A stretch of 64,000 bases of DNA, taken from contig DAOPBR010000007.1 of assembly GCA_035395685.1 (NCBI GenBank), positions 918 to 64,917 on the forward strand. Reading direction: 5' to 3'. The position numbers were made by a program, and so were the translations under genes. Of the stretch, positions 33,161-48,004 are shown in pieces (position 1 is the stretch's first letter; the number at the start of each line of letters is the position of its first letter). The notes beneath the pieces were generated by a model. That model made no database searches and was not told the origin of the DNA. It was given only the letters and a program-made list of their open reading frames with translations. The stretch comes from Spirochaetota bacterium. GTDB taxonomy: Bacteria; Spirochaetota; UBA4802; JAFGJZ01.

Positions 33161-35599
33161 ATGTCAAAATTTTTAATTATCGGCGGCGTTGCCGGAGGAG
33201 CAACAACTGCGGCACGCCTCAGAAGAATCGATGAAGAAAGCGAAATTATAATTATTGAACGCGGAGATTACATTTCATACGCTAACTGCGGACTTCCCTA
33301 CTACATCGGCGGAACAATTGAAAAACGCGAATCGCTCTTCGTTCAGACTCCTGAATCGTTTTTCAAAAGATTCAATGTAGACGTCAGAATAAAATCAGAA
33401 GTCATATCAATAAACAGAGATAAGAAAACAGTCACAGTAAAGGAATCATCCGGAAAAACATACGAAGAAAATTATGACAAACTGGTTCTTTCTCCGGGAG
33501 CCGAACCCATAAAACCCATGATTGACGGAATTAATGATCCGGCAATCTTCACCTTGCGTAGTGTTCCCGACACAGATAAAATCAAAAAATACATAAATGA
33601 TAACAGGCCAACATCTGCAATTGTAATCGGAGGCGGCTTCATAGGTCTCGAAATGGCCGAAAATCTTCACGCACTCGGAATAAAAGTATCTATCGTCGAA
33701 ATGGCTGATCAGGTAATGACGCCTGTTGATTACGAAATCGCGGCATATGCCCATCATCACATCAAAACCAAAGGTGTAGATCTTTTTCTCGGCGACGGCA
33801 TAGCTTCATTTTCACGAAACGGAAATTCCGTTTCGGCAAGGCTCGCGAGCGGCAGAGAAATTGTTTCCGACATGATAATTCTTTCAATAGGAATAAAACC
33901 TGACACCGCATTTCTGCGGACTTCCGGCATTAATCTCAGCGATAGGGGCGCAATTATCGTTGATGAATTTCTGCGCACAAATGACGAAAATATTTATGCT
34001 GTCGGTGACGCAGTAATATTCACAAGTCCGGTAACGAATAAACCCCTGCCAGTATTTCTCGCAGGACCTGCGAACAAGCAGGGAAGAATCGCCGCTAACA
34101 ATATAGCGTTCGGAAATACGGAGAAATACAAAGGTTCGATTGCAACGGCAATAGCAAAAGTTTTTGATCTTACTATTGCTTCATGCGGTCTTTCTGAAAA
34201 ATTTCTAAATGCTCAATCTATCAAATGCAAAAGTTCAATAACAATCAGCGCTTCTCATGCGTCATATTACCCTGGCTCGACTACCATGACAATCAAGCTT
34301 GTTTTCGATCCTGACAACGGAAAAATCCTTGGAGCACAAATAACAGGCTATGATAATGTCGAATCAAAGATAAACATGATTGCGGCTGTGATGGGGATGA
34401 ACGGAACAGTCACCGATCTAAGAAACATTGAACATGCATACGCACCGCCTTATTCTTCAGCAAAAGACGCTGTGAACATCGCGGGCTTCACAGCAGAAAA
34501 TATAGTAAAAGGTGAAGTTCAAACTCTTTCATGGAATGATGTAAAAAGCATTTATCCTTCAGACTGGCAAATAATTGATGTAAGAACTCCGGCAGAATAC
34601 GAGCTCGGTTCGATTATGAATTCAATCAACATTCCGATTGATTCTCTCCGTTCAAGGATTGATGATGTCAGCAAGGACAAAAACATACTGCTTTACTGCG
34701 CGGTAGGATTGAGAGGATATGTTGCGCTTAGAATATTGAAAAACAAAGGATTCAAAAACGTTTATAATCTTTCAGGCGGATACAAGTTATATTCAACTGC
34801 ATCACAAAAGATCGAAGACGGAATAACCCAGGAATGGACAGGAAATGATTCAGGCGAAAAAACAAAAGACAATACCACTGCTGAAGGAAAATCTTTCACA
34901 GTTGATGCCTGCGGACTTCAGTGTCCGGGTCCTGTTATGCGGCTGAAATCAGAAATAGAGAAATTATCAAGCGGAGATATTTTAACAATAAGAGCAACAG
35001 ATGAAGGTTTCATGCGCGATGTCGGCGCATGGTGCCTGATGACAAAAAACACACTTCTTTCAGTAGATAATGAAAAAGGTATCGTCACTGCCCGCATACA
35101 AAAGGGAGCAAAATCTTCTATAAGCGGCAGTAGAGACAATAAAACAATTGTAGTTTTTTCTGATGATCTTGACAAGGCTATCGCCGCTTTTGTAATCGCA
35201 AACGGAGCAGCAAGCACAGGCAAGAAGGTGACCATATTTTTTACATTCTGGGGACTGAACGTTATCAAAAAACGCAAATCAAGATCCAAGAAAGATTTCT
35301 TCTCGAAAATGTTTTCATTCATGATGCCGAAGGGAAGCGGTGAACTCGATTTATCGAAGATGAACATGGCAGGCATGGGTCCGAAGATGATAAGATGGAG
35401 GATGAAGAAAAAAAACATTGATTCTCTCGAAGCAATGATTCAGTCTGCCCTCACGAACAATATTGAATTTATGGCATGTCAGATGTCAATGGATGTAATG
35501 GGAGTTAAAAGAGAAGACTTGATTGACGGAGTTACGATCGGCGGCGTAGCGGCATATCTCAACGAAACCGAGTCAAGCAGTCTCAATCTGTTCATATGA
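33161..35599 (+). CDS. Four-domain CoA-disulfide/persulfide reductase: FAD/NAD(P) oxidoreductase (CoADR-like) + rhodanese + TusA-like + DsrE/DsrF-like
   Basis: SYANCGLPY redox Cys; rhodanese active-site CAVGLRG; TusA CPGP motif (ACGLQCPGPVMRLK); C-terminal DsrE-like domain. Confidence 0.75.
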   Translation: MSKFLIIGGVAGGATTAARLRRIDEESEIIIIERGDYISYANCGLPYYIGGTIEKRESLFVQTPESFFKRFNVDVRIKSEVISINRDKKTVTVKESSGKTYEENYDKLVLSPGAEPIKPMIDGINDPAIFTLRSVPDTDKIKKYINDNRPTSAIVIGGGFIGLEMAENLHALGIKVSIVEMADQVMTPVDYEIAAYAHHHIKTKGVDLFLGDGIASFSRNGNSVSARLASGREIVSDMIILSIGIKPDTAFLRTSGINLSDRGAIIVDEFLRTNDENIYAVGDAVIFTSPVTNKPLPVFLAGPANKQGRIAANNIAFGNTEKYKGSIATAIAKVFDLTIASCGLSEKFLNAQSIKCKSSITISASHASYYPGSTTMTIKLVFDPDNGKILGAQITGYDNVESKINMIAAVMGMNGTVTDLRNIEHAYAPPYSSAKDAVNIAGFTAENIVKGEVQTLSWNDVKSIYPSDWQIIDVRTPAEYELGSIMNSINIPIDSLRSRIDDVSKDKNILLYCAVGLRGYVALRILKNKGFKNVYNLSGGYKLYSTASQKIEDGITQEWTGNDSGEKTKDNTTAEGKSFTVDACGLQCPGPVMRLKSEIEKLSSGDILTIRATDEGFMRDVGAWCLMTKNTLLSVDNEKGIVTARIQKGAKSSISGSRDNKTIVVFSDDLDKAIAAFVIANGAASTGKKVTIFFTFWGLNVIKKRKSRSKKDFFSKMFSFMMPKGSGELDLSKMNMAGMGPKMIRWRMKKKNIDSLEAMIQSALTNNIEFMACQMSMDVMGVKREDLIDGVTIGGVAAYLNETESSSLNLFI

Positions 35600-36219
35600 T
35601 AAAAGCGTATTACATAAGACATAAAGGCGGCGGTTTCGAAATGCCGCCTTTTTTTTGCGACAGCTATCACCAGGAGATAGAATCAACCGCAAACAATGCT
35701 CTGCGCAGCATGAAAAGGATGACATCCGCCCTTCTCGCATTTGCCCTATCTGAAGCTGCAATTATTCCGCCGTATGAAATAAAAAGATCCGCGCACGGAA
35801 AACCGTTTCTTCCAAATGAAAAAATTAAATTCTCATACTGCCATACAGAAGGATTATGTGCCGCGGTTATATCAGATTACGAATGCGGAATTGATGCTGA
35901 GAACATTAACAGAAAAGCGTCATTTGAAGAAATTTCATCGCGCTTTTTTACTTCAGATGAAAACGAATATCTTTCTTCAAGAAATTTTTCAAGCAAAGTC
36001 TTCTATGAAATATGGACAAAAAAGGAAGCCTATTTGAAATTTACAGGAAGAGGCCTCGCTGGCGGACTGAATTCTTTTTCGGTTTTATCGCTTGATAAGG
36101 GAAAAACAACATGCGTCATAATAGACGATTTCATAATCAGCGTATACGGGGAAAGCACTGCCGAAATCCGTGAAATAACTCCAGCCGGTCTTTTTATGAA
36201 ACTTGGGGTTAAGCTTTAA
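35596..36219 (+). CDS. Sfp-type 4'-phosphopantetheinyl transferase
   Basis: GKPF…, GIDAE and WTKKEAYLK motifs. ATGA overlap with the upstream gene. Confidence 0.7.
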
Positions 36220-36868
36220 GAGCTTTTCTCATCATTCCGATTGCTTCGGAATATGAAGAAGAACCGAAAATTGCCGATCCTGAAACGAACGTATCGGCTC
36301 CCGCTGCGGCTATCATTGCGATATTCGATGCGGTTATTCCTCCGTCAACTTCAAGACGGATGTCCCTGCCGGAATTTTTTATTTTCTCGCGCACGGTTTT
36401 AATCTTGGCAATCGAAGAATCTATAAACTTTTGTTTGCCGAAACCGGGATTAACGCTCATGACAAGAATCATGTCGACAATATCAATTATGTAATCAAGA
36501 CAATCGGGTGATGTTGACGGATTCAACGATACTCCGGCTTTGCATCCCGAGTCTTTGATAAGACGCAGTGAACGGTCAAGATGCTCAGTTGATTCAGGAT
36601 GTATAGTTATCCAGTCTGCACCGGATTCTGCAAAATCTCCGATAAGACTGTCGCATGGTTTTACCATCAAATGAACATCAATCGGAGCCTTTATCCCGTA
36701 TTTTTTCAGCGATGAACATACAAGCGGTCCTATAGTAAGGTTCGGAACATAATGATTGTCCATGACGTCAAAATGTATCCAGTCGCCGCCGGCTGAAATA
36801 ACATCTTCGCACTCTTTTCCCAGACGGGAAAAATCGGCAGAAAGTATCGAAGGCGCAATCACGTACAT
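36209..36868 (-). CDS. rpe: Ribulose-phosphate 3-epimerase
   Basis: Rpe TIM-barrel pattern ([17 protein letters not shown]…). Confidence 0.9.
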
Positions 36869-36928
36869 AAATCCTCGCTTGTGATCAGTTTTATGAAAAT
36901 ACGTAAAGGCGTCAAATATTTTATCGAA

Positions 36929-37432
36929 TCAGCCGCAACGTTCAATCAGCTTTTCAGATATCAGATACGCAGCCGGGCAATAAAGCGTATTCTGAGCTAG
37001 ACGGGCAAGTTTAGGCTGCATATTTTTTTCGTCGGTATGCGGATATTCACGGCAAGCCCGCGGTCGTATCTCATAAACAGAACAAAGATTGTCTTCAAGA
37101 GCAAACGGACACGGCATCGACTTAAACACATGATCTCCGTCTTCATCCATGCGCAGATATTTTTCAACAAAATCTTTTCTGCGAAGTCCGCAGTGAGACG
37201 ACATCTTTTCAATATCTGTTTCATTAAATAGCGGCCCGAGCTTTCTGCAGCAGTTCGCGCATTTAGTGCAGTCTATATTTTCAAATACTTCCGCATGAAT
37301 CGACTGAAGAATTCTGTCAAATGACTTAATGCTGCGCTTGGACAAAATGCTCATTGATTTTTTTGTCTGATTATAGCGCGACTTCGCCTTTTCGAGAATG
37401 AGCAGGTATTCTTTTTTCATATTACACCACAA
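36929..37432 (-). CDS. YkgJ-family (PF03692-like) Cys-cluster protein
   Basis: CTKCANCC … CPF … C pattern. Confidence 0.65.
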   Translation of the reverse strand: MWCNMKKEYLLILEKAKSRYNQTKKSMSILSKRSIKSFDRILQSIHAEVFENIDCTKCANCCRKLGPLFNETDIEKMSSHCGLRRKDFVEKYLRMDEDGDHVFKSMPCPFALEDNLCSVYEIRPRACREYPHTDEKNMQPKLARLAQNTLYCPAAYLISEKLIERCG

Positions 37433-39551
37433 GTATTATTCCGTTTTCACGAAGGAATGACCACTCCGAACTTTCAGTAAACGGAGCAAACCGCATATCT
37501 TTTTTGATTTCTGATAAAAGTATTTTTTTTCCGGAAAAAATATCAGCTTCATGCACGATATGCATAATTAATTCTGAATTTGATTCAGAGAATTCTATCG
37601 AGTCCGAACCCGATTTATCAGTCAACACAAGAAAATTTCTGCCGCGCTTTTTTTCAATTTCCAGTACACCCGACAAATTCCATAAAATATATTTTCCTTC
37701 CAGAGGAAAATGATCTTCTGATTCATAAATTCTTTTAATTGAGCCTGGTTTAATTCCGGGCTTCTTAACTGCAAAATCAAAAAAAGATGATACGGTAGTT
37801 TTTATTTCTGAATACATATTATAACAGTTTAGCGCTGCACGTAAACCGTTTGAATATAATGAATAATCGCAGATATCACCCGAATATGCCGTTTCATTAT
37901 TTGCAAAAGGATTCATTTTACCCAGAGCCTTCACGCCATAATCTTTTGAATTCATTCCCGAATCACTGTGAACTGTCATCGCATATCTGTGAAAATATGC
38001 AGACGTCAGATATCCGTTTTCAAACATCTGTCTCACGGTCTCAAGAGAATCTGAAACCTCCTGCTCTGTCTGCGTAGGAAAACCGTATATAAGATATGAA
38101 TGAACCATTATTCCGGCATTTGTAAAATTAGCGCATGTTGTAATCGCTTCTTCAAGAGCAACACCCTTTTTCATTAATTCAAGAATGCGCCTGTTTGCCG
38201 CCTCAAGCCCGCCGCTTACACCGATACAGCCTGCAACAGAAAGAAGTCTCGCCATATCCATTGTGAAACTTTTTTCAAAGCGGATATTGCCCCACCAGCT
38301 TATGGAAAGTTTTCTGCTAATTAATTCCAGTGACAATTCGCGCAGCAAAGCCGGCGGCGCGGCTTCGTCTGTAAAATGAAAAGAATTTATTCCGGTTTCT
38401 TTGACAAGTTTTTCTATTTTATCCGCCGCACCTTCTGATGTTTCCGGTTCAAACCGGCATATATAATCAAGTGAGGTATCACAGAATGCGCATTTCTTCC
38501 AGTAACATCCGTGAGCAAGAGTCATCTTCAGATAAAAGTCCGAATTCCACATCGAAAGCATCGGATTGGCATTGTCCGAAAGCATAAGATACCTAGTGGT
38601 ATCTATATCCGAATAATCTGCATAAAAACCTTCATATATCTTTGCATCGGCTTCGTCCGAATCACGGAATACTATTTTCTCATCCTCAATAAAAAATGTG
38701 CGCTTAAACGAATAAGATTCGCCGCGCGCTTTTTTTATGATATTGAGAAGAGGCTTCTCGCCGTCATCAAGCGTCATATACTGAGCATAGTCAAAAAACT
38801 TCTTCTCTCTGATATTTCTAAGTTCGGTATTGACGAAACCTCCCCCGGCGCATCTTGTAATTTCCGGATAGTTATCCCTGACAAAACGGAGGGCTCGAAG
38901 TGCATTAACAAGTGTACCCGGGAAAGGTATGCTGACAGCAAATATATCAGGATTGTATTTTTCAATTTCAGCGCGCAAAAGACTGTAATACATTTCTGTG
39001 ATAATATTATCTTTAAGTACTTCATCTTCAACGGGAGCAAAAGTTTCAGCCGATACGGAAATTCTTTCGGCATACTTCGCAAGAGCAAATGAAGAATCTA
39101 CTGTTTCTGAAATGAATCTTGCCATATCCGCAAGAAAAAATGTGCACATAATTCTTGCCCGCTCAATATCATTATCAGAAGAAACGCCTGAAAGAATAAT
39201 CTGCGCACGTTCTCCGCTTTCAGGCAGAATACCTCCTCTGACTATTCTTCTTGCTGAAGCGGTGTTGCTTCGCTGCAGAAAATCCATTACAAAATCAGCC
39301 GAATCGGTAAAAGAATCTTTTACAATAAAAATCTTTTCGGAAAATTTTGTGCTGATGAATTGTTCAGCCGAATCAAATATTTTCCTCATTCCACCAGAAG
39401 AAAATACTTTATGAGCAAGCATGATACTCATATCAGCCTGATGCGCAGAATATCCAATCGATTTCAGGTAGCGGAGAAGATATCCCGCTGCTGGATACGG
39501 GCAATTAAACTGCGTAAACGGCGGCGTAATTATTAAAAGATCAGAACTCAC
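37422..39551 (-). CDS. Large radical-SAM-like protein with B12-binding-like N-terminal domain and CX4CX2C cluster
   Basis: HGCYWKKCAFCD. 709 aa. Overlaps both neighbours. Confidence 0.5.
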   Translation of the reverse strand: MSSDLLIITPPFTQFNCPYPAAGYLLRYLKSIGYSAHQADMSIMLAHKVFSSGGMRKIFDSAEQFISTKFSEKIFIVKDSFTDSADFVMDFLQRSNTASARRIVRGGILPESGERAQIILSGVSSDNDIERARIMCTFFLADMARFISETVDSSFALAKYAERISVSAETFAPVEDEVLKDNIITEMYYSLLRAEIEKYNPDIFAVSIPFPGTLVNALRALRFVRDNYPEITRCAGGGFVNTELRNIREKKFFDYAQYMTLDDGEKPLLNIIKKARGESYSFKRTFFIEDEKIVFRDSDEADAKIYEGFYADYSDIDTTRYLMLSDNANPMLSMWNSDFYLKMTLAHGCYWKKCAFCDTSLDYICRFEPETSEGAADKIEKLVKETGINSFHFTDEAAPPALLRELSLELISRKLSISWWGNIRFEKSFTMDMARLLSVAGCIGVSGGLEAANRRILELMKKGVALEEAITTCANFTNAGIMVHSYLIYGFPTQTEQEVSDSLETVRQMFENGYLTSAYFHRYAMTVHSDSGMNSKDYGVKALGKMNPFANNETAYSGDICDYSLYSNGLRAALNCYNMYSEIKTTVSSFFDFAVKKPGIKPGSIKRIYESEDHFPLEGKYILWNLSGVLEIEKKRGRNFLVLTDKSGSDSIEFSESNSELIMHIVHEADIFSGKKILLSEIKKDMRFAPFTESSEWSFLRENGIILVV

Positions 39552-42391
39552 AGTTCTACTTTAATTCCGTAATAGAATTCTTTCTGACCGTACTTGTCGA
39601 ATCCGTTTGCAAAACCGGCATACACGGTATGGTTGAGAAAATATCCAGTTGTCATATCAAACATAATTTCACAGCCGGCGCTTCTATAATACTTTTTATC
39701 TTTTGAATCCTTCGAAGCGCTTGAATAAAGACGCGCCGCTTCAAAAAAAGGCCGGATATAATTTACATGATTAAAAACCGGAATTCTGTCAAACCCGTTA
39801 TTCAGCCTGAAAAGAGGCATTATATATTCTGCCGTAATTGACTGATAGCGGTTGCCCCACACCTTGTCTTTTTCATATCCGCGTATACCGTCTTCCATAT
39901 TGTCAAGACTGTTTGTGAAAACTTTTTTTGAACGGGCAAGGGAAAACGGCGAACTGAAATATTCATCAGCATTTGAATGACCGAACTTTCCGGTAAATGA
40001 AAAACAGTGATTATAAATAAATGAAGGAAGCCTTAATGAAAGTGCTCCGAAATAATTTTTAAGTTCAGAATCATCACCGAACTTCTTAGAATAATTTTCC
40101 GCATAACCGTGGAAAAAAAATCCGCGTTCTTTCGTAACTGAATAAGTAAACATCTCTGAGGTATTAAAGTCTAAAACAGCTTTTACTACACCCTTCTTTC
40201 CTTCAATCTCATAAACAACACCGTTTCTGTTATATTCCCAGAATGTTTTCCCCCGGGTATAATATAATCCGAGATTCGCCTGATATTTCATTTTCATATA
40301 CGGAATCATAAGAATTCCCGAATATGAGTTTTCTGTTGTCCGTTTAGTATCCTCTTCAATATCATACGGAAAATCATTTTCTTTCCAGAACAGACGTTCA
40401 TTCAGATATGATGCTCCGAGTGTAAACAAATGATTAAAATTATAGAGATATAATGCTGATACAGTTGATCTTTTCTGAGAAAAATCGTTAACAGAAAACA
40501 ATGACAGATTGTGAATCAAAAGAGTATCGGAAAATTGGAAATAGGAATAAAGCGTATTATTATAGCCGCTCTCATCAGAAATTTTTTCACCCTGAAGCGA
40601 GAAAAGAAAAAGCCACATCCATGGAGAAACATTAAACAATGAATAATATTTTTTTTCTTCAAAAACCGCTTCAGCAGCATTATCACTTTCGATTGAATTA
40701 TCAGCAGAAAATGATTTCTCCATGGGAAAAGATTCAGCAGCCGCAGGATAATTCATTATCCCCACTCCGTATCCGCCGTCTCCGAAAACAGTAAATGCCA
40801 GCTTATTGCCGTTTGGTGAAACATCGGATGAAAAAGCTCCGGTAAGCAGGTTGGTAAGCCTTGATGCCGTTCCTGATTTTATTTTTAACTCATAAAGATT
40901 AAAAATACCGGTTCTATCGGATGAAAAGACCAATTCAGAATCATTCTTCCATGCCGGAAACATGCAAAATGATCCCCTAATTGAATATTTTGACACCTTT
41001 AAATCTTCAATATTCAAAACTGCGATTACGGTCTTTCCCTGATTTTCTTTATCACGCATCGAATACGCAATTTTTTTACCATCGGGCGAAAATCTGCAAT
41101 GGGAAATCTGAACGAAAGATTCTAATAATATTTTTTCATTTTTAAAATCACTGCCGCATACTGAAAGAACATACTTCCCTGCATCCTCGCTTATCATACA
41201 GACTTTGCCGTTTTTAACATCAATCCATGACGAACGTTTTTTCCGGACTGAAGCACTTTCTTTGCCTGACTTTTTTAAATCATAATACAATCGGCTGTTG
41301 CCGTATAATTCAAGCGAGTTATAGTAAAGATTCCCATCCTCTCCGGCAAAAGACTGACAGTACACAGTGTCTTCAATTTTTTTATCATAAAGAAATTTGG
41401 AATTCAGCTTGCGAAACCTTATTGATTCGCCCGTGTGAGGAGAATCTTTTACATAATACAAAGCGCTATCCGATTCAAACCGCGGATTTCCTGAATTAAA
41501 TGAATATGGACAAACCAGATAAAACTTTGAAATTCCGGCAGATTCAATTTTTGCTTTTTCATTTGTAAACTCAGCAAGCTGAAACCTTTTCCATTCATCC
41601 CATGTATCCAGAAGAGACGCGCCGTACTGTTTACGGAAATTTCCGTACATCTGAAACGGAAAAATATTATGAGCATTAATTTCGAACTGCTCAGCGAACT
41701 GACCCTTTTCAAAATATGCCGAGTTCATATAATTTACAAAATACGCACCGTAGAGATAGGCTATGTTTCCCCCAGGCCATCCGGCATGCGAATTTGCTGC
41801 TTCAGAAAGTGAACGGTCATTGCCGGCAAGAAAATCAGTACGCACAATCATTCTTGCAAGAGAGCTTGAAAGTCTTCCGGAATTTTCGAGCTGTGATTCG
41901 CTATATACTGCGTTGCCTTCAAGCTGCCAAAGAGGAACAATAGCATTAGGAAATGCAACAAATCTTCCGGTAAAAATATATATAAATCTCCAGAAGCCGT
42001 ACCGTTTATCCATATTCAGAATATGGGTGAACTCATGAACAAATACAGACTCAAGCCAGTTATTCATATTACCAATAGTATCTTCGGGCTGAGGCGACTT
42101 GAGATATATTCTTATAATATTATCAGGTGAAGGTGTAGCATAACCGTTTGAAATATCCATATCATCTGTCAGAACAATTTTAACTTTTGAATAAGGAATC
42201 CATTTCTGCGATTTCGTCAACGCGGGATAATGCTTCTCGGATATCAGAGCAAGTCGTGCGGCATACTTATAAAGATTATCCTCATAGATTATTTTAAAGT
42301 GATCAGTCTCTATATACTTATAACTTGCAGCATGAATTACTCCGAATGAACAAATCATGAAAAAAGCCGCAAACATTATTTTTCTAAACAT
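39548..42391 (-). CDS. Secreted HExxH zinc-peptidase-like protein fused to TolB-like (PD40) beta-propeller repeats
   Basis: Signal peptide; HEFTHILN…E; repeated FSPDGKKIAYS and VSPNGNKLAF motifs. 947 aa. Confidence 0.45.
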   Translation of the reverse strand: MFRKIMFAAFFMICSFGVIHAASYKYIETDHFKIIYEDNLYKYAARLALISEKHYPALTKSQKWIPYSKVKIVLTDDMDISNGYATPSPDNIIRIYLKSPQPEDTIGNMNNWLESVFVHEFTHILNMDKRYGFWRFIYIFTGRFVAFPNAIVPLWQLEGNAVYSESQLENSGRLSSSLARMIVRTDFLAGNDRSLSEAANSHAGWPGGNIAYLYGAYFVNYMNSAYFEKGQFAEQFEINAHNIFPFQMYGNFRKQYGASLLDTWDEWKRFQLAEFTNEKAKIESAGISKFYLVCPYSFNSGNPRFESDSALYYVKDSPHTGESIRFRKLNSKFLYDKKIEDTVYCQSFAGEDGNLYYNSLELYGNSRLYYDLKKSGKESASVRKKRSSWIDVKNGKVCMISEDAGKYVLSVCGSDFKNEKILLESFVQISHCRFSPDGKKIAYSMRDKENQGKTVIAVLNIEDLKVSKYSIRGSFCMFPAWKNDSELVFSSDRTGIFNLYELKIKSGTASRLTNLLTGAFSSDVSPNGNKLAFTVFGDGGYGVGIMNYPAAAESFPMEKSFSADNSIESDNAAEAVFEEKKYYSLFNVSPWMWLFLFSLQGEKISDESGYNNTLYSYFQFSDTLLIHNLSLFSVNDFSQKRSTVSALYLYNFNHLFTLGASYLNERLFWKENDFPYDIEEDTKRTTENSYSGILMIPYMKMKYQANLGLYYTRGKTFWEYNRNGVVYEIEGKKGVVKAVLDFNTSEMFTYSVTKERGFFFHGYAENYSKKFGDDSELKNYFGALSLRLPSFIYNHCFSFTGKFGHSNADEYFSSPFSLARSKKVFTNSLDNMEDGIRGYEKDKVWGNRYQSITAEYIMPLFRLNNGFDRIPVFNHVNYIRPFFEAARLYSSASKDSKDKKYYRSAGCEIMFDMTTGYFLNHTVYAGFANGFDKYGQKEFYYGIKVEL

Positions 42392-42412
42392 AAAATTCCC
42401 CGTTATCTCAAG

Positions 42413-43198
42413 TTAAATCCATGGAGTAACATGAAAACATCTTTGATTGCCTTCATATATTATCATAATCTTATTTTCACGCTGAAGCTCAACAAGAGTC
42501 TCAGAGAGAATAGTCTTAAACTGACGGCGCAGAGAATCGCCGATCAGATAACCGGATCTTCTTCTTACGGATGATGCTTCTTCTGCCGACAGCTCATTAA
42601 AAGAAAAATCCGGAAGTGCATAGTAATCATCAAAAAATATATCAAAACTGACACCGTAGCTGTGTGTCGATTCATTTATGGCATTAACATTTGTTTTCTT
42701 CAACTCAGTTTGATAATCAGACACCCGAAGAGCTGAAGATACAGCAAAACTGACGCTCCCCTTTATATTTCTTTTTCTCAGATTCAAATCAAAACGTTTA
42801 CAAATCAAATCAAGCGCCGATGCCGCTTCTTTCGTCAGATAACGGTTTTCCTTACTGACTCCGTAAAAATAATACTTCTGAGGAATAAGCTCGATATAAT
42901 CCCCGTTTTTAATAAATGCTTCAGCCTGAGTCCTTGACTGCGAATGAAAACCGTATTTTTTCGCAAATGCCGCATGGCGCGGATATGAGCTCCTCATTTC
43001 AGCAATATCAGATCCCTTCCAGTCGTCAAATATCGGCGTCGAATCAATGACAGAATTCTCAAAAGCTCCGATATCATCCATAAACTCATTGACTTCCGAA
43101 ATATACGCCTTCCGTTTCTCATACAGACGGAAAGATACACCGATTGACACGGCAATCATTAGAACAAATATAATAGAGACAGTTACAGCTTTTTTCAT
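42413..43198 (-). CDS. Membrane-anchored M15/VanY-like D,D-peptidase
   Basis: N-terminal TM helix. STHSYGVSFD matches the SxHxxGxAxD motif. Confidence 0.45.
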   Translation of the reverse strand: MKKAVTVSIIFVLMIAVSIGVSFRLYEKRKAYISEVNEFMDDIGAFENSVIDSTPIFDDWKGSDIAEMRSSYPRHAAFAKKYGFHSQSRTQAEAFIKNGDYIELIPQKYYFYGVSKENRYLTKEAASALDLICKRFDLNLRKRNIKGSVSFAVSSALRVSDYQTELKKTNVNAINESTHSYGVSFDIFFDDYYALPDFSFNELSAEEASSVRRRSGYLIGDSLRRQFKTILSETLVELQRENKIMIIYEGNQRCFHVTPWI

Positions 43199-43299
43199 AA
43201 AACACCCCGCACTTTTTTAATAGACTTGCTTTTTTTGGCAACCATGATTCGTTAATTATTGTCTCTCTGCATATAAGCGGATTTCCGCACAGTTAAGGA

Positions 43300-43650
43300 G
43301 TGTTTATGAATACATCATCACAAGCCGCACAAGTGGTAATTGCGGTGATCCCGATTGCAGGGATAATGATGGGAGGAGCCGTGGCGCTTTTGTATCTCAT
43401 CTATGCGCATAAGCAAAAAATGCTTATGATTGAAAAAGGCGTTTTTAAAAAAACAAGAATCGATCTCCGAGGTATCGTTTTCTTTTCGGGATTTCCATTA
43501 AGCGCGACAGGATTGGGACTCACGCTTTTTTTTGCAATAAAAGACGGAATCAATTACGGAATGCTGAGCGGTCTTATCCCGCTTTTTATCGGCATCAGCT
43601 TTATTATTTATAATTTTCTCAAGCATTCAACAACTTCGGACCGGGGATGA
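43300..43650 (+). CDS. Small membrane protein (3-4 TM), first gene of ECF sigma operon
   Basis: Hydrophobic profile. Stop overlaps the sigma-factor start. Confidence 0.35.
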   Translation: MFMNTSSQAAQVVIAVIPIAGIMMGGAVALLYLIYAHKQKMLMIEKGVFKKTRIDLRGIVFFSGFPLSATGLGLTLFFAIKDGINYGMLSGLIPLFIGISFIIYNFLKHSTTSDRG

Positions 43651-44201
43651 ATCAGCTTTCAGACGAACAGATAGTAAATTCAGTTTTAAACGGAGATACC
43701 GAGGCCTTTTCTGAACTGATAACAAGGTACAATAACCGTGTGTTTGCAGTCGGAATGAGGCTTTTTAAAAATCAGGATGATGCCGGCGATTTTACGCAGG
43801 AGGTTTTCATCCGCGCATTCGACAAACTCAGCTTATTCAGCTTTATATCGCCGTTTTCTCACTGGCTTATTAAGCTCGCGTATAATTACGGAATAAACCT
43901 GCTGAAGAAAAAAAAGAAGGAAATTCCTTCAGATAAAATAGAAATTACATCTAAGGAAGATCAAAGTGAATCGTATTCAAAAAAGGAGCTCGCGGAACTT
44001 GTAAGAAGCGCCGTCGATACCCTTCCTGAAGACTATAGAATATGTGTTGATTTGTTTTTTTACTGGGACATGAAACTCACTGACATTTCGGCACTGACGA
44101 ATAAACCGCTTAACACGGTTAAATCAAACGTGCGCAGGGCAAAAATAATACTGCGCGACAAATTAAAAGGAACAATCGCGGAGGAGTACCATGAACTGTA
44201 A
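43647..44201 (+). CDS. ECF (sigma-70 family) RNA polymerase sigma factor
   Basis: Region 2 (FTQEVFIRAF) and region 4 helix-turn-helix (LTDISALTNKPLNTVKSNVRRA). Confidence 0.85.
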   Translation: MNQLSDEQIVNSVLNGDTEAFSELITRYNNRVFAVGMRLFKNQDDAGDFTQEVFIRAFDKLSLFSFISPFSHWLIKLAYNYGINLLKKKKKEIPSDKIEITSKEDQSESYSKKELAELVRSAVDTLPEDYRICVDLFFYWDMKLTDISALTNKPLNTVKSNVRRAKIILRDKLKGTIAEEYHEL

Positions 44202-44670
44202 TGACGCAACACGTATAATCGACTACATAATAACAGGAAAAGAAAGCAAATCTTTCATCAGGCATATTGAAGAATGCCCGGTCTGCGCTAAAGAATACCA
44301 TGAATTTATGAAAATAAAAAAGATGGCATCGGAAGAAGATCTTTTTATTTCAAATGTAAAACCCGAAAGCATAATGGATAAAATAAAAGTCAGAACAAAG
44401 GAAGTATCTTCATATCCATGGGCGATAGCAATCATCGTGTCTCTGATCGGCATCATGCTGGTTTCGCCTATTACACATGAACTTCAAAACAGCTACCCTG
44501 ACGCGGGAAGTTTTTCAATAATCCTGAATCTTGTATTCGGTCTTTTGATCAGTTGTTTCATATTCATGTACATGTACACGCATCATGATAAATCGAAACG
44601 CATTGCGCAGTTTTTAAAGAGAGAGCATCATCATTTGATGCATATAGCAGACAGGTCGTTGAGGAGATAA
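44191..44670 (+). CDS. Zinc-binding (ZAS-type) anti-sigma factor with TM segment
   Basis: HIEECPVC HxxxCxxC motif plus a TM helix. Confidence 0.65.
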   Translation: MNCNDATRIIDYIITGKESKSFIRHIEECPVCAKEYHEFMKIKKMASEEDLFISNVKPESIMDKIKVRTKEVSSYPWAIAIIVSLIGIMLVSPITHELQNSYPDAGSFSIILNLVFGLLISCFIFMYMYTHHDKSKRIAQFLKREHHHLMHIADRSLRR

Positions 44671-45260
44671 TCCTCGACTATCTTTACATTCGAAAATGAG
44701 AATTTTTTGATTACGTTCTCTACATCACGTATTGAATAATAATGATATTTTTCTTCTTTATCATCCGAACGCTCACTTAGAAGATTGAATACTATATATT
44801 GCGATGAAAGATCCGAAAAAACCCTGAGAGCGTTTTCAAGAAACTCAATATTGTTTCCGAGATTGAGATTAAAAATTCCTGAACTGAAAACAACATCAAA
44901 AACTCTTGATGAAAATAATTCCGGTTCAGAAAAAGCATCTCCGTGAATAATTTCAATTTCCGGAAATCTTTCGCGTGCAGCAGACGCCATTTGAGGAAGA
45001 ATATCTATTCCGGTATATTTAGTGCGTATTCCATGTTCAGAAAGAAAAGCATACAAATCAGCAAGACCGCATCCGACATCAAGAAGTGATTTTCCGGGAA
45101 GAGGAACATACTCGCTCAATACTGCAAAACGTGAATGCTGGGCTTCCATGCTTTCCCAGTCAAGAATCTCATGGTTAAGCCGGTCGGTTCCGAATTTGGG
45201 AACATAATGATCGCGGATAATTTCTATTCGAGAACGTTTATTTGGAGATATGCAATTCAT
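44631..45260 (-). CDS. Class I SAM-dependent methyltransferase
   Basis: LLDVGCGLADL motif I. Confidence 0.65.
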   Translation of the reverse strand: MNCISPNKRSRIEIIRDHYVPKFGTDRLNHEILDWESMEAQHSRFAVLSEYVPLPGKSLLDVGCGLADLYAFLSEHGIRTKYTGIDILPQMASAARERFPEIEIIHGDAFSEPELFSSRVFDVVFSSGIFNLNLGNNIEFLENALRVFSDLSSQYIVFNLLSERSDDKEEKYHYYSIRDVENVIKKFSFSNVKIVEDYLLNDLSAICIK

Positions 45261-45464
45261 GTGACCGGTCTATTCCTGCTTATTATTATTTCAATACTTT
45301 TTTATTAACAAAATATATAAAATCCCGAAGCAGAATCAAATCAAAAAATAACCGGAATAAAAAACCGGTTGTCCGGAAGAAAATGAATAAATATCTCAAA
45401 GGAGAAAAAAAATAACCATCTTTTTGAAATCTTTTTGTTGCCGTTTCGCGAATTGCTGGATATC

Positions 45465-45486
45465 ATATACCCTAGGGGGGTATACT
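45465..45486 (+). promoter_or_regulatory. CsoR-type operator ATACCCTAGGGGGGTAT, overlapping the csoR ribosome-binding site/start
   Basis: GC-cored palindrome, closely resembling as I recall it the B. subtilis copZA CsoR site; immediately 5' of the csoR ATG. Confidence 0.6.
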
Positions 45487-45488
45487 AG

Positions 45489-45797
45489 ATGCCGAAACAC
45501 TCATGCGACAAATGTTCCGAAAAACTTGCACATCATTCATCCGAATTAAAATCCGATATAGACAAAAGAATATCCAAAATCGAAGGTCAGATAAGGGGAA
45601 TACGAAAGATGATTTCCGAAGACAAGTACTGCGATGACGTATTGAATCAGATTACGTCCGCGCAATCAGCATTAAACAGCGTCAGGATCATGCTTCTTGA
45701 AAACCATATTAATTCATGTGTCGCAGAACAGCTTGCTGAAGGCGATAAGTCCGTTATTGACGAGTTAATGAAAACAATAGCGAGAATGGTGAGGTAA
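45489..45797 (+). CDS. csoR: CsoR/RcnR-family copper-sensing repressor
   Basis: DUF156 pattern with YCDDVLNQ … H … C ligand set. Confidence 0.85.
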   Translation: MPKHSCDKCSEKLAHHSSELKSDIDKRISKIEGQIRGIRKMISEDKYCDDVLNQITSAQSALNSVRIMLLENHINSCVAEQLAEGDKSVIDELMKTIARMVR

Positions 45798-45859
45798 TAA
45801 TGAATCCAGACGTCTTCAGCGGAAGCGGCGGATCGATGCACGGAATGTAAGGAGATTAT

Positions 45860-48004
45860 ATGAAACAGTCGGAATTTATCATTACAGGAATGAGTTGTGC
45901 AGCATGCAGCGGACGCGTTGATAAAAAAATCTGTTCGCTTCCGGGGGTGCAAAGCGCAAACGTGAATCTGGCAACAAACAAAGTTATGGTAACATATAAC
46001 GAAGAGACTGTCAGAGTTGATGATATAATTTCGGCTGTACGCTCCATCGGATTCGGCGCGGAGGAATTTCAGGAGAATACCGCCGAGAAATCAAGACTTG
46101 ACGAGTTAAAGTCGCATAGACTTTCCTTCATAGTCTCCGGCATACTTTCCTTTCCGCTTCTGGTTTCAATGATTCTTATGCTATTCAAAACCGGACCCGA
46201 TTTCCTTCACAATCCGGTTTTTCAGTTCATTTTGGCAACTCCGGTTCAGTTTATCATCGGCGCCAGATTCTATAAAAAAAGTTTCATAACATTAAAAAGT
46301 CTTTCTCCCGGCATGGACATTCTCGTCGCGCTGGGAACGAGTGCTGCGTATTTTTACAGCGCTTTTAACACCTTTATACGTCCGGATCATTTCCATATAT
46401 ATTATGAAGCCGGAGCAGTAATAATAACCCTTGTTATACTCGGAAAATATCTCGAATCACGCGCTAAATACAAAACATCATCTTCAATCAGAAAATTAAT
46501 TGATCTTAAACCGAAAACTGCCCGCGTTATACGGGAAGGAAAAGAATATGAAATAAACAGCTCCGAGATAATTATCGGGGATGAAATCATTGTACGACCA
46601 GGAGAAAAGTTTCCTTCGGACGGAACGGTAATCGGCGGTGAAAGCTCCGTTGACGAAAGCATGATTACCGGCGAAGGAATACCCGTTTATAAAAATGCCG
46701 GAATGAAAGTCCTCAGCGGATGTATAAATATCGACGGTGTAATACATTTCCGTTCTGAAAAAAACGGCAAGGATACACTTCTTGCCCAGATTATTTCAAT
46801 CGTTGAAAAAGCCCAGAACTCGAAAGCACCGGTGCAGGATCTCGCAAACAGAATTGCCGGAATTTTCGCGCCTTCAATAATCATAATATCAATAATAACG
46901 TTTTTTGCATGGTTTTTAATTACTGGTGACTTATCAAACGCAATTATCAATTCAGTAGCCGTTCTTGTAATAGCCTGCCCATGCGCTCTTGGACTCGCGA
47001 CTCCGACAGCCATAATGGTCGGAACAGGAATAGGAGCTGAAAGAGGAATATTAATACGCGACGCGGAAGCACTGGAACGCGGTGAACAGATCAACGCTGT
47101 AGTTCTTGATAAAACAGGAACCATAACTGAAGGCAAGCCTTCCCTTTCATCGGTAGTCAGCATTAATGAAACTCCGGTATCTGATCTGGAATTGATACGA
47201 AAATGCGCATCCCGTTCGGAACATCCTTTATCGAAAGCTGTTTCTATACCTATCGAAGATATGTTAATTGATTCTTTCACATCTTTTCCCGGAAGGGGAT
47301 TCAAAGCAGTTAAATCCGGAAAGAGTGTCATTCTTGGAAGCATGCGCTTTTTGGAATCAGAGGGAATCGATACCGGCATATTTGAAAATCATATAAATGC
47401 TTACAGAGGTTCTTCCATCGTTGCAGCAGCGATTAACAATAAACCTGCCGCATTGTTTATACTAAACGATAGGATTCGCCCAGAATCGGTTGAAGCTGTT
47501 AAAGTCCTTCAAGAAAGATCAATAGAAGTATACATAGTCAGCGGAGATTCACGTGAAGCCGTATTGGCTGCCGCTGACAGCCTTGGCATTCTCCGCGACA
47601 ATGCAGTCTTTGAGGCGCTTCCGTCCCGGAAATCTGATTTCGTAACGTCACTTAAAGACAATGGCAAAAAGGTTCTTTTCGCAGGCGACGGAATTAACGA
47701 CGCTCCCGCGCTGGCAACATCTGATCTTGGAACTGCACTGGGAAGCGGAACTGACATAGCTATTGATTCGGCACACATAGCCCTTATCCGTCCGGATCTG
47801 CGGGCAATAATAACCGCGCTGGATCTGTCAAAGGCAACAATGAAAAAGATCCGCCGTAATCTTTTTTGGGCTTTTTTTTACAATTCATGCGGAATTCCGA
47901 TTGCGGCAATGGGATTTCTGAATCCTGTAATAGCCGGAGCCGCTATGGCGCTTAGTTCGGTATCAGTTGTTATGAATTCATTGTCTCTAAAAAGATTCAA
48001 GTGA
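45860..48004 (+). CDS. copA: Copper-translocating P1B-type ATPase with N-terminal HMA domain
   Basis: GMSCAACSGRV, CPC (ACPCALGLATP), DKTGT and GDGINDAP motifs. Confidence 0.95.
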   Translation: MKQSEFIITGMSCAACSGRVDKKICSLPGVQSANVNLATNKVMVTYNEETVRVDDIISAVRSIGFGAEEFQENTAEKSRLDELKSHRLSFIVSGILSFPLLVSMILMLFKTGPDFLHNPVFQFILATPVQFIIGARFYKKSFITLKSLSPGMDILVALGTSAAYFYSAFNTFIRPDHFHIYYEAGAVIITLVILGKYLESRAKYKTSSSIRKLIDLKPKTARVIREGKEYEINSSEIIIGDEIIVRPGEKFPSDGTVIGGESSVDESMITGEGIPVYKNAGMKVLSGCINIDGVIHFRSEKNGKDTLLAQIISIVEKAQNSKAPVQDLANRIAGIFAPSIIIISIITFFAWFLITGDLSNAIINSVAVLVIACPCALGLATPTAIMVGTGIGAERGILIRDAEALERGEQINAVVLDKTGTITEGKPSLSSVVSINETPVSDLELIRKCASRSEHPLSKAVSIPIEDMLIDSFTSFPGRGFKAVKSGKSVILGSMRFLESEGIDTGIFENHINAYRGSSIVAAAINNKPAALFILNDRIRPESVEAVKVLQERSIEVYIVSGDSREAVLAAADSLGILRDNAVFEALPSRKSDFVTSLKDNGKKVLFAGDGINDAPALATSDLGTALGSGTDIAIDSAHIALIRPDLRAIITALDLSKATMKKIRRNLFWAFFYNSCGIPIAAMGFLNPVIAGAAMALSSVSVVMNSLSLKRFK

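Follow-up and report, generated by a model that had tools for sequence, protein, structure and literature searches.

Gene organisation of the locus

The window analysed here, a 64,000-nucleotide stretch from an uncultured member of the Spirochaetota, carries on its minus strand four closely packed open reading frames, all of which lie where a preliminary description of this DNA had placed them. They encode, in this order, a DUF5715 protein (gene 1), a protein with an HExxH motif and a PD40-type propeller (gene 2), a radical SAM (rSAM) protein (gene 3) and a YkgJ protein (gene 4). Genes 1 and 2 are separated by a gap of 21 nt, and the two following junctions measure -4 nt and 1 nt. At the second junction, the GTG start codon of the rSAM gene and the TGA stop codon of gene 2 share the sequence GTGA (39548..39551, minus strand). 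This 4-nt overlap had been noticed before, and we found it unchanged in three relatives (L081, L084 and L086). Moreover, the GTG start is required if the rSAM protein is to retain the N-terminus LLITPPFTQ, which is conserved in its family. The overlap of 11 nt that had been proposed for the rSAM and YkgJ genes exists only if the latter begins at TTG 37432, which would give a protein of 167 aa. The start is most likely ATG 37420 instead, placed 1 nt past the TAA stop codon of the rSAM gene (TAA-N-ATG) and yielding the 163 aa recorded for nearly all public copies.

A scan of the region found no terminator-like site in any intergenic gap; across the region such sites occur near chance level (12 found, 7.9 +/- 2.8 expected from shuffled sequence). 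Judged by this arrangement, the four genes are probably co-transcribed, and the co-translation suggested earlier is borne out in so far as such close packing implies co-transcription and a translational coupling that appears real in this lineage. A search for RNA elements at the locus returned none. We also looked nearby for a small precursor-peptide ORF, as the preliminary description had advised, and found none that would fit the gap of 21 nt within the operon or those of 60 and 101 nt on its two sides.

Downstream, the gene for ribulose-phosphate 3-epimerase, rpe (36209..36868, minus strand; TIGR01163, 4.3e-89), starts 60 nt after the YkgJ gene. This gap, too, is free of terminator-like sites, and by its position rpe is possibly a fifth gene of the same transcription unit. 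A promoter-like site (TTGAAC-16-TAAAAT, 36945..36918, minus strand) lies ahead of rpe, and sigma-70-like matches in the region are at chance level (25 found, 25.7 expected). Upstream, genes for a DUF6249 membrane protein, an ECF-type sigma factor and a putative anti-sigma factor (43300..44670, plus strand; Pfam DUF6249, Sigma70_r2 and Sigma70_r4_2) run divergently, 101 nt from gene 1. The arrangement is retained in close relatives, and the trio may be considered a candidate regulator of the operon.

Proteins encoded by genes 1 and 2

Gene 1 (42413..43198, minus strand) encodes a protein of 261 aa, named 'DUF5715 family protein' by NCBI, that matches Pfam DUF5715 with 4e-25 and 88.9 bits (cutoff 26.8). 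Its N-terminus (MKKAVTVSIIFVLMIAVSIGVSF) is a hydrophobic anchor or signal. The protein had been called VanY-like, and to the eye it does show the sequence STHSYGVSFD (42670..42641) and a C-terminal His (CFH, within CFHVTPW), which together form a possible motif of LAS-type zinc hydrolases; BLASTP gave an E-value of 0.05 with one VanY. However, VanY/M15 profile, PDB and PHROG searches were all without a match, and DUF5715 was the sole profile matched.

For the 947-aa protein of gene 2 (39548..42391, minus strand), the preliminary description had foreseen secretion, an HExxH motif and a beta-propeller. Its hydrophobic N-terminus (aa 1-21) is signal-like; secretion, however, leaves out a C-terminal barrel of the Omp85 type. 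According to its AF2 model (pLDDT 84.3, pTM 0.86), the protein is predicted to be an outer-membrane WD40-Omp85 protein, in which a gluzincin-like domain (aa ~24-285, 42322..41537) with the motif HEFTH (42037..42023) is followed by a TolB/PD40-like beta-propeller (aa ~290-562, 41524..40706) and a BamA/TamA-like beta-barrel (aa ~580-945, 40654..39557). The HExxH motif and the propeller were hence rightly recognised: Pfam PD40 is matched with 32.4 bits (cutoff 20.9), and TolB entries of the PDB are matched by sequence and by fold, while the Pfam TolB match is sub-threshold. In Foldseek, the model matched TolB as well as the barrels of BamA/TamA, with E ~1e-9 to 1e-7, and its own barrel (residues 580-945) reached a TM-score to target of up to 0.62 with the latter. 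The window's protein itself has no direct match to Pfam Omp85; its full-length homologue P0148 passes with 42.8 bits (cutoff 24), and some homologues carry the NCBI label 'BamA/TamA family outer membrane protein'. No POTRA domain was matched by Pfam.

A WD40-Omp85 subfamily of the Omp85/TpsB superfamily has already been described (Heinz & Lithgow 2014, PMC4104836). The 947-aa protein resembles it in that an N-terminal TolB-like propeller is joined to an Omp85 barrel of the 16-strand type and POTRA domains are missing. Beyond propeller and barrel, the 947-aa family has an N-terminal domain of ~260 aa with an invariant HExxH...E; the paper on the subfamily (PMC4104836) nowhere uses the word 'peptidase' in its main text. 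Across 30 sequences of the family, H119, E120, H123 and E158 are invariant, and E158, which lies within WxxEG, is the putative third zinc ligand. A profile of the N-terminal domain matched the M1 aminopeptidase 3CIA (E 0.005) in the stretch that covers the xEG motif, and the Pfam matches of family members to BSP, Peptidase_MA_2 and M48 were weak and all sub-threshold. The BAM-associated quality control of E. coli comprises the BamA barrel, the BamB propeller and the M48 metalloprotease BepA. The same three kinds of module (barrel, propeller and zinc metallopeptidase) would be united in the 947-aa polypeptide. This is a functional analogy only; homology to BepA is not demonstrated, the best profile match is to an M1 aminopeptidase and POTRA domains are lacking.

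Proteins encoded by genes 3 and 4

Gene 3 (37422..39551, minus strand) encodes a class-B-type rSAM protein of 709 aa. Its proposed assignment to the radical SAM enzymes is supported by Pfam Radical_SAM (PF04055), matched at residues 345-504 with 2.6e-12 and 47.7 bits (cutoff 29.5). In the AF2 model (pLDDT 89.7), a split Rossmann domain precedes the radical SAM core, which is followed by a C-terminal alpha/beta domain (aa ~620-709). The core, folded as a partial TIM barrel, matches rSAM structures and carries a SAM-binding motif of the GGE type; this motif, GGLE, lies at aa 447-450, and G447, G448 and E450 (GGxE) are invariant in 50 sequences. The B12-like N-terminus that had been proposed is seen in the model as a Rossmann domain of the B12 type, interrupted by a helical insertion of ~160 aa, whereas the Pfam B12-binding profile remains below its threshold (17.8 bits, cutoff 32.1).

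The SAM-binding [4Fe-4S] cluster is canonically bound by three Cys spaced as CX3CX2C. This spacing is absent from the rSAM protein, which has CYWKKCAFC (CX4CX2C; C349, C354 and C357; 38507..38481, minus strand) with a Cys triad that is invariant in 50 family members. The non-canonical spacing had thus been read correctly; it is, however, not exclusively Elp3-like, as OxsB carries a functional CX4CX2C cluster motif too (PMC9204698).

The top Foldseek matches of the model were OxsB, TsrM, MgmA/QCMT, TokK and AprD4, with E-values of 1e-11 to 4e-13 for OxsB, TsrM, TokK and QCMT; like OxsB, TsrM, TokK and QCMT/MgmA are class-I B12-rSAM structures. The domain of AprD4 that is homologous to cobalamin-binding Rossmann domains is not known to bind cobalamin. 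Since AprD4 is also among the matches, the fold alone would be no proof that the rSAM protein uses cobalamin. The best match was OxsB (PDB 5UL2-4; E 4e-13, TM ~0.43), a cobalamin-dependent enzyme of oxetanocin A biosynthesis. Both proteins have ~700-730 aa, and in both a Rossmann-type domain precedes the radical SAM core. In contrast, they are only 13-14 % identical in the structural alignment, and a search of the PDB with a profile of the rSAM family did not retrieve OxsB at a threshold as loose as E <= 10. The rSAM protein has no separate N-terminal domain I, because its Rossmann domain, which the insertion splits, already begins with residue 3, and its C-terminal domain is alpha/beta, with the OxsB-type helix bundle absent. 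Moreover, no natural-product cluster or oxetanocin-type context (OxsA partner) is found at the locus, where the neighbours are unrelated. Membership of the OxsB family was rejected, given that detectable sequence homology is lacking and that both terminal domains and the gene context differ.

SPASM/twitch or RRE-type domains were matched neither by Pfam nor by NCBIfam; such domains are not universal among class-B peptide methyltransferases. The similarity to NCBIfam models of RiPP C-methyltransferases is weak and far under the cutoffs, and that to models of lipid-modifying B12-rSAM enzymes (TIGR04072, 1e-12; HpnJ, 6e-9) is likewise weak, generic and far below cutoffs. Taken at 50 % identity, the rSAM family numbers about 2,000 representatives (E <= 1e-30).

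Gene 4 (36929..37420, minus strand) encodes a clear member of the YkgJ family, as had been proposed: the 163-aa protein matches Pfam PF03692 with 7.4e-13 and 49.4 bits (cutoff 23) and contains the Cys cluster CTKCANCC (CxxCxxCC). Orthologues in Streptococcus are 52-54 % identical and bear the NCBI name YkgJ family, and those of other spirochaetes (55-59 % identical) follow the gene of a DHH phosphoesterase or that of an argininosuccinate lyase. The contexts of the orthologues are unrelated to the present one, and the position directly after an rSAM gene is atypical of them.

Conservation of the neighbourhood and interpretation

The preliminary description looked to conservation of the three- to four-gene cassette in other genomes. 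We compared neighbourhoods over flanks of 5-10 kb, using tblastn, phmmer and searches for motifs, a design from which very divergent or distant partners could escape. The four-gene cassette was encountered solely in relatives with 80-96 % identity in the cassette proteins, and such collinear relatives retain the entire neighbourhood rather than the cassette alone. At none of 80 genome loci that carry an rSAM homologue (36-46 % identical; Bacteroidota, Nitrospirota and some Spirochaetota) did the fetched flanks (up to 10 kb) contain a DUF5715, 947-type or YkgJ gene, and a YkgJ-type ORF, sought by the motif C..C..CC or by tblastn at E <= 0.01, was not found near the rSAM gene in them either. No conserved neighbour is common to the rSAM loci, the largest shared cluster, present at 15 of 86 loci, being made up of generic two-component proteins whose position varies, and an envelope-gene neighbourhood was not seen around the family elsewhere. 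A same-strand ORF lies within 100 nt downstream of the rSAM gene in 12 of 77 loci and upstream in 17. Overall, the rSAM gene is mostly solitary in the loci examined in these three phyla. Likewise, DUF5715, rSAM-709 and YkgJ genes were not found at about 76 metagenome loci with distant Omp85-family homologues of the 947-aa protein (22-33 % identical; around 80 homologues, flanks of up to 8 kb).

The four genes belong to separate, widespread families, each of which is found elsewhere apart from the remaining three. Therefore, we regard the cassette as a local arrangement and not as a dedicated radical-enzyme maturation system, and consider it likely that a lineage-specific polycistronic operon joins two unrelated modules under one promoter. 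The first module would serve the cell envelope. One of its components would be the DUF5715 protein, anchored in the membrane and possibly acting as a zinc hydrolase of the LAS type on the peptides of peptidoglycan; the other would be the WD40-Omp85 protein, the barrel of which would carry the TolB-like propeller and the gluzincin-type HExxH peptidase domain where POTRA would stand. The HExxH domain is probably periplasmic and may bind or trim envelope proteins or peptides. The second module would be cytoplasmic and combine a class-B-type rSAM enzyme of the OxsB/TsrM fold, with its CX4CX2C motif, and the small, broadly conserved YkgJ protein as a Zn/Fe-S protein. Since genes of this rSAM family are mostly solitary, the enzyme most likely has a housekeeping role, modifying some molecule that is common in cells. 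The GTGA overlap, conserved in the clade, links the gene of an exported protein to that of a cytoplasmic rSAM protein; this speaks against two separate modules and is compatible with a functional link.

The preliminary description had been reminded of maturation systems, in which a radical enzyme modifies a partner or substrate. At this locus the rSAM enzyme, helped by YkgJ in Fe-S or electron transfer, would post-translationally modify the 947-aa protein, the DUF5715 protein or an unseen peptide before export. Such a role would suit the tight coupling conserved within the clade. Modifiers of proteins and peptides exist among the class-B rSAM enzymes, some peptide C-methyltransferases being of this class, and a weak similarity to models of RiPP C-methyltransferases was noted above. 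RiPP and protein-maturase systems also have rSAM genes translationally coupled to their neighbours. In contrast to these systems, the locus lacks a precursor ORF, for which the gaps are too small, SPASM/twitch or RRE-type domains and conserved co-occurrence of neighbours; assignment to such a cassette was rejected on account of the missing small ORF and the absence of a conserved neighbour across the 80 loci. Moreover, the genes lie together only in the 80-96 % identical relatives, the rSAM and Omp85 families are each widespread without the other nearby, and YkgJ orthologues are present in streptococci, which are Gram-positive and have no outer membrane. The lack of an rSAM profile match, or separate transcription together with a lack of synteny elsewhere, had been named beforehand as evidence against maturation. 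The profile is matched; the genes are not syntenic elsewhere, which leaves this claim unsupported and, in our view, highly improbable.

A narrower link could exist between rSAM and YkgJ alone, with YkgJ as a redox or metal-cluster partner, e.g. a reductant or cluster donor, and the envelope genes as bystanders. Both are predicted to be cytoplasmic metal-cluster proteins. The sole intermediate relative available (L083) keeps the order rSAM-YkgJ (52 % identity for rSAM, 60 % for YkgJ over the 83 residues on the contig) and the near-abutting junction, although its upstream gene differs (DUF2628); therefore the pair may be functional. However, it is the sole independent rSAM-YkgJ locus, on a contig that breaks off within the YkgJ gene, the 80 other rSAM loci have no YkgJ-type ORF nearby, and YkgJ orthologues are located elsewhere in other spirochaetes and highly conserved in streptococci. 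We consider this pairing rather unlikely.

An envelope-stress regulon was also weighed, in which the ECF sigma and anti-sigma factors would control the four genes and the rSAM enzyme would modify a lipid or lipoprotein handled by the Omp85 and DUF5715 proteins. The divergent sigma operon, the two predicted envelope proteins among the four products and the generic similarity to TIGR04072 and HpnJ would fit. Against it, the sigma-70-like matches are at chance, the sigma trio is tied to the cassette in collinear close relatives only and the rSAM family has no envelope-gene neighbourhood elsewhere, which makes such a regulon quite improbable. We give similarly little credence to the broader idea that the GTGA-coupled WD40-Omp85, rSAM and YkgJ genes reflect a real link and that the CX4CX2C class-B family modifies some molecule related to the envelope, be it a lipid, a lipoprotein or the Omp85 protein. 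If true, this spirochaete clade would be unique in having captured the gene beside its functional partners, and would give a first handle on the substrate.

As a local arrangement of two modules, the operon is a cautionary case: a functional system does not follow from overlapping start and stop codons, nor from products that are oddly mixed as to compartment. As it stands, its significance is small, apart from two by-products. The first is the rSAM family, which is sizeable, well-conserved, uncharacterised and usually solitary, with an invariant OxsB-like CX4CX2C, and is a reasonable target for enzyme discovery. The second is the WD40-Omp85 family, whose invariant gluzincin-type HExxH...E domain suggests a barrel-tethered periplasmic protease. 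Around homologues of this Omp85 protein we observed isolated echoes of the present neighbourhood, which weigh against a purely local arrangement, namely an unrelated canonical B12-rSAM gene with MurJ divergent from the homologue at two loci (L087 and L088) and a divergent VanY gene at a third (L089).

Organisation of the operon and its flanks

The four same-strand ORFs of the preliminary description were recovered on the minus strand, and the profile searches proposed there confirmed its radical SAM and YkgJ assignments. They comprise a DUF5715 gene (43198..42413; 261 aa; Pfam 88.9 bits), the gene of a 947-aa protein (42391..39548) with PD40 and sub-threshold TolB matches in Pfam/NCBIfam, a 709-aa radical SAM gene (39551..37422; Radical_SAM 47.7 bits, cutoff 29.5) and a YkgJ-type gene ending at 36929 (CxxCxxCC/YkgJ 49.4 bits). 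The motifs reported for the two large proteins, HEFTH (HExxH) and CYWKKCAFC (CX4CX2C), respectively, are both present. GenBank Spirochaetota MAGs already hold all four proteins under consecutive accession numbers, named 'DUF5715 family protein', 'hypothetical/PD40 domain-containing protein', 'radical SAM protein' and 'YkgJ family cysteine cluster protein'.

The first two genes are spaced by 21 nt. Of the two overlapping junctions described earlier, the 4-nt one (GTGA) between the 947-aa and radical SAM genes holds and has the same sequence in three relatives, whereas the 11-nt overlap at the YkgJ gene holds only for translation from a TTG; starting instead at the ATG located 1 nt past the radical SAM stop gives a 163-aa product, as in nearly all public copies. 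No terminator-like site was found in the intergenic gaps, and promoter- and terminator-like counts across the region are at chance level. A small precursor-peptide gene, suggested earlier as something to look for nearby, was not found: the intergenic gaps hold no ORF of precursor size, and an Rfam scan of 35000-46000 gave no element. A sub-threshold L20_leader match at 35569..35661 (+) (23.2 bits against 58.7, E 0.6) is most likely due to chance.

Downstream, the ribulose-phosphate 3-epimerase gene rpe (36209..36868, minus) follows the YkgJ gene after 60 nt. A 4'-phosphopantetheinyl transferase gene (35596..36219, plus) converges on rpe, the 3' ends overlapping by 11 nt; its start shares 4 nt with the stop of an 812-aa fusion (33161..35599, plus). 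The latter joins a pyridine-nucleotide-disulphide oxidoreductase (CoA-disulfide-reductase-like) to Rhodanese, TusA and DsrE-type domains and is a multi-domain sulfur-trafficking protein.

Divergent from the operon lies a compact plus-strand unit (43300..44670; 4-nt and 11-nt overlaps) of a DUF6249 membrane protein, an ECF-type sigma factor and a 159-aa putative anti-sigma factor that has no Pfam match. This unit may control the operon. That the genes constitute an ECF-controlled envelope unit is improbable in our judgement. Further along, at 45489..48004 (+), a CsoR/RcnR-like ORF (102 aa) precedes an ORF of 714 aa that resembles P-type heavy-metal ATPases and carries an N-terminal CxxC motif, both read from translations only.

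The 947-aa protein

Among MAGs of Nitrospirota, Myxococcota-type, Aminicenantes, WOR-3 and KSB1, full-coverage homologues of the 947-aa protein (22-30 % identity) are common. Several of them carry a BamA/TamA family annotation, and one passes Pfam Omp85 at its C-terminus. An AlphaFold model built from 30 sequences (pLDDT 84, pTM 0.86) comprises a helical domain (residues 24-285), a propeller (290-562) and a large beta-barrel (580-945). Since Foldseek matched the propeller to TolB and the barrel to BamA/TamA, the protein is predicted to be an outer-membrane member of the Omp85 superfamily and falls into the 'WD40-Omp85' subfamily of Heinz & Lithgow 2014 (PMC4104836). It had been described as secreted; the model and the Foldseek matches point to more than a secreted protein, namely an outer-membrane barrel.

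The N-terminal domain appears to be a gluzincin-type peptidase domain. H119, E120, H123 and E158 are invariant in 30 sequences, and the domain profile matches an M1 aminopeptidase over the stretch containing WxxEG (E 0.005); all MA-clan Pfam matches in the family are below threshold. The putative peptidase domain is probably active and periplasmic.

The radical SAM and YkgJ proteins

At least 8,000 clusters (90 %) match the radical SAM protein at E <= 0.001. The best 120 of these matches are about 710-750 aa long or short forms of about 625 aa; all but six close relatives have 37-44 % identity, and the named members are mostly Bacteroidota. Searching 1.84 billion representatives with a profile gave 2,003 matches at E <= 1e-30. 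Invariant positions include the Cys triad C349/C354/C357, a GGLE motif and numerous loop residues in the N-terminal Rossmann domain. Long members (800-920 aa), examined for domain fusions, contain no extra Pfam domains. The short forms (~624-630 aa; P0007, P0009, P0040; loci L173, L174) are without the C-terminal alpha/beta domain of about 100 aa. The 154-aa ORF after the short form in L173 was considered as the missing domain or as YkgJ and is neither.

The AlphaFold model (pLDDT 89.7) is nearest to OxsB, TsrM, MgmA/QCMT, TokK and AprD4, which points to a class-B architecture. The B12-like N-terminus proposed earlier is thus consistent with the model, but the B12-binding profile remains sub-threshold (17.8 against 32.1). 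The CX4CX2C spacing had been likened to Elp3. The same motif is used by OxsB (PMC9204698) and therefore is not specifically Elp3-like. No sequence-level relation to OxsB was detectable in PDB profile searches, which returned nothing at E <= 0.01 and marginal generic radical SAM matches at E <= 10, and the flanking domains of the two proteins are unlike. The protein belongs to a separate, uncharacterised family, on which we found no literature.

For DUF5715 and YkgJ, PDB and PHROG searches gave no usable match, and no paper in the literature search mentions DUF5715. Full-length YkgJ orthologues with 52-54 % identity occur in Streptococcus mutans and other streptococci (P0254-P0360); for an uncharacterised protein, this conservation between phyla is high.

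Gene order in other genomes

The cassette is retained in relatives with 80-96 % identity in its proteins, but these are uninformative on synteny because the entire surrounding region is kept as well. Conservation of the cassette in other genomes, the check suggested earlier, was not borne out. Around 80 radical SAM homologues from GTDB genomes (Bacteroidota, Nitrospirota and few Spirochaetota; 36-46 % identity), no DUF5715, 947-type or YkgJ gene was found (tblastn E <= 0.01, fetched flank up to 10 kb), nor were the other three cassette genes present around the ~76 distant of 80 metagenomic Omp85-family loci. The preliminary description had likened the operon to maturation systems, in which a radical enzyme modifies a partner or substrate, and had itself listed absence of synteny elsewhere among its refuting conditions; with the partners absent from these loci, we regard such a system as very unlikely.

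As a rule the radical SAM gene shows no obvious operon context: a close same-strand gene lies downstream in 12 and upstream in 17 of 77 loci, and no neighbour is conserved. Neighbour clustering around the 80 loci gave generic two-component proteins at variable positions as the largest shared cluster; the others are genus-level housekeeping genes, which we take from the sequences to be atpC/atpD, cysteine synthase, ribF, bshC and a biotin-carrier protein.

A functional pair of radical SAM enzyme and YkgJ is a somewhat better candidate than the maturation system, although still unlikely. The order of these two genes is retained in L083 (radical SAM 52 % identical, YkgJ 60 % over 83 residues on the contig), although a DUF2628 gene stands upstream there. 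This is the only such locus; ORFs within 6 kb of the radical SAM homologues contain no CxxCxxCC motif, and YkgJ orthologues in other spirochaetes (55-59 % identity) come after unrelated genes.

The account with most support is an operon specific to this lineage. In it, DUF5715 and the peptidase-propeller-Omp85 protein, as an envelope pair, would be joined to a cytoplasmic metal-cluster pair, the class-B-type radical SAM protein and YkgJ. Neither pair appears to depend on the other. The minority options share elements with this account and should not be read as exclusive rivals. All components belong to known families and have annotations in public MAGs already, and the arrangement is local to the clade. 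The residual interest lies in the unstudied CX4CX2C radical SAM family and in the putative zinc-peptidase domain, with its invariant residues, of the WD40-Omp85 proteins.

Clustering of neighbours around the Omp85-family loci gave as its sole pattern a lineage-level adjacency to one gene run, which we take from the translated sequences to be frr, pyrH, tsf and rpsB. In one group of distant homologues (L110, L139, L158, L167 and about eight other loci) the WD40-Omp85 gene is convergent to it. This block lies near bamA in many bacteria. Divergent from the WD40-Omp85 gene, two related loci of one lineage carry MurJ and a canonical CX3CX2C B12-binding radical SAM gene (L087 6257..7858, L088 6272..7897; 533-541 aa), and a single locus carries a VanY gene (L089 6906..7673). 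This canonical radical SAM gene was rejected as a counterpart of the operon's own, being a non-orthologous member of another family (21 % identity) with CX3CX2C spacing in one lineage. Because a rough estimate predicts 2-4 radical SAM neighbours among ~150 flanking genes in anaerobes, the neighbours in all three loci are compatible with chance.
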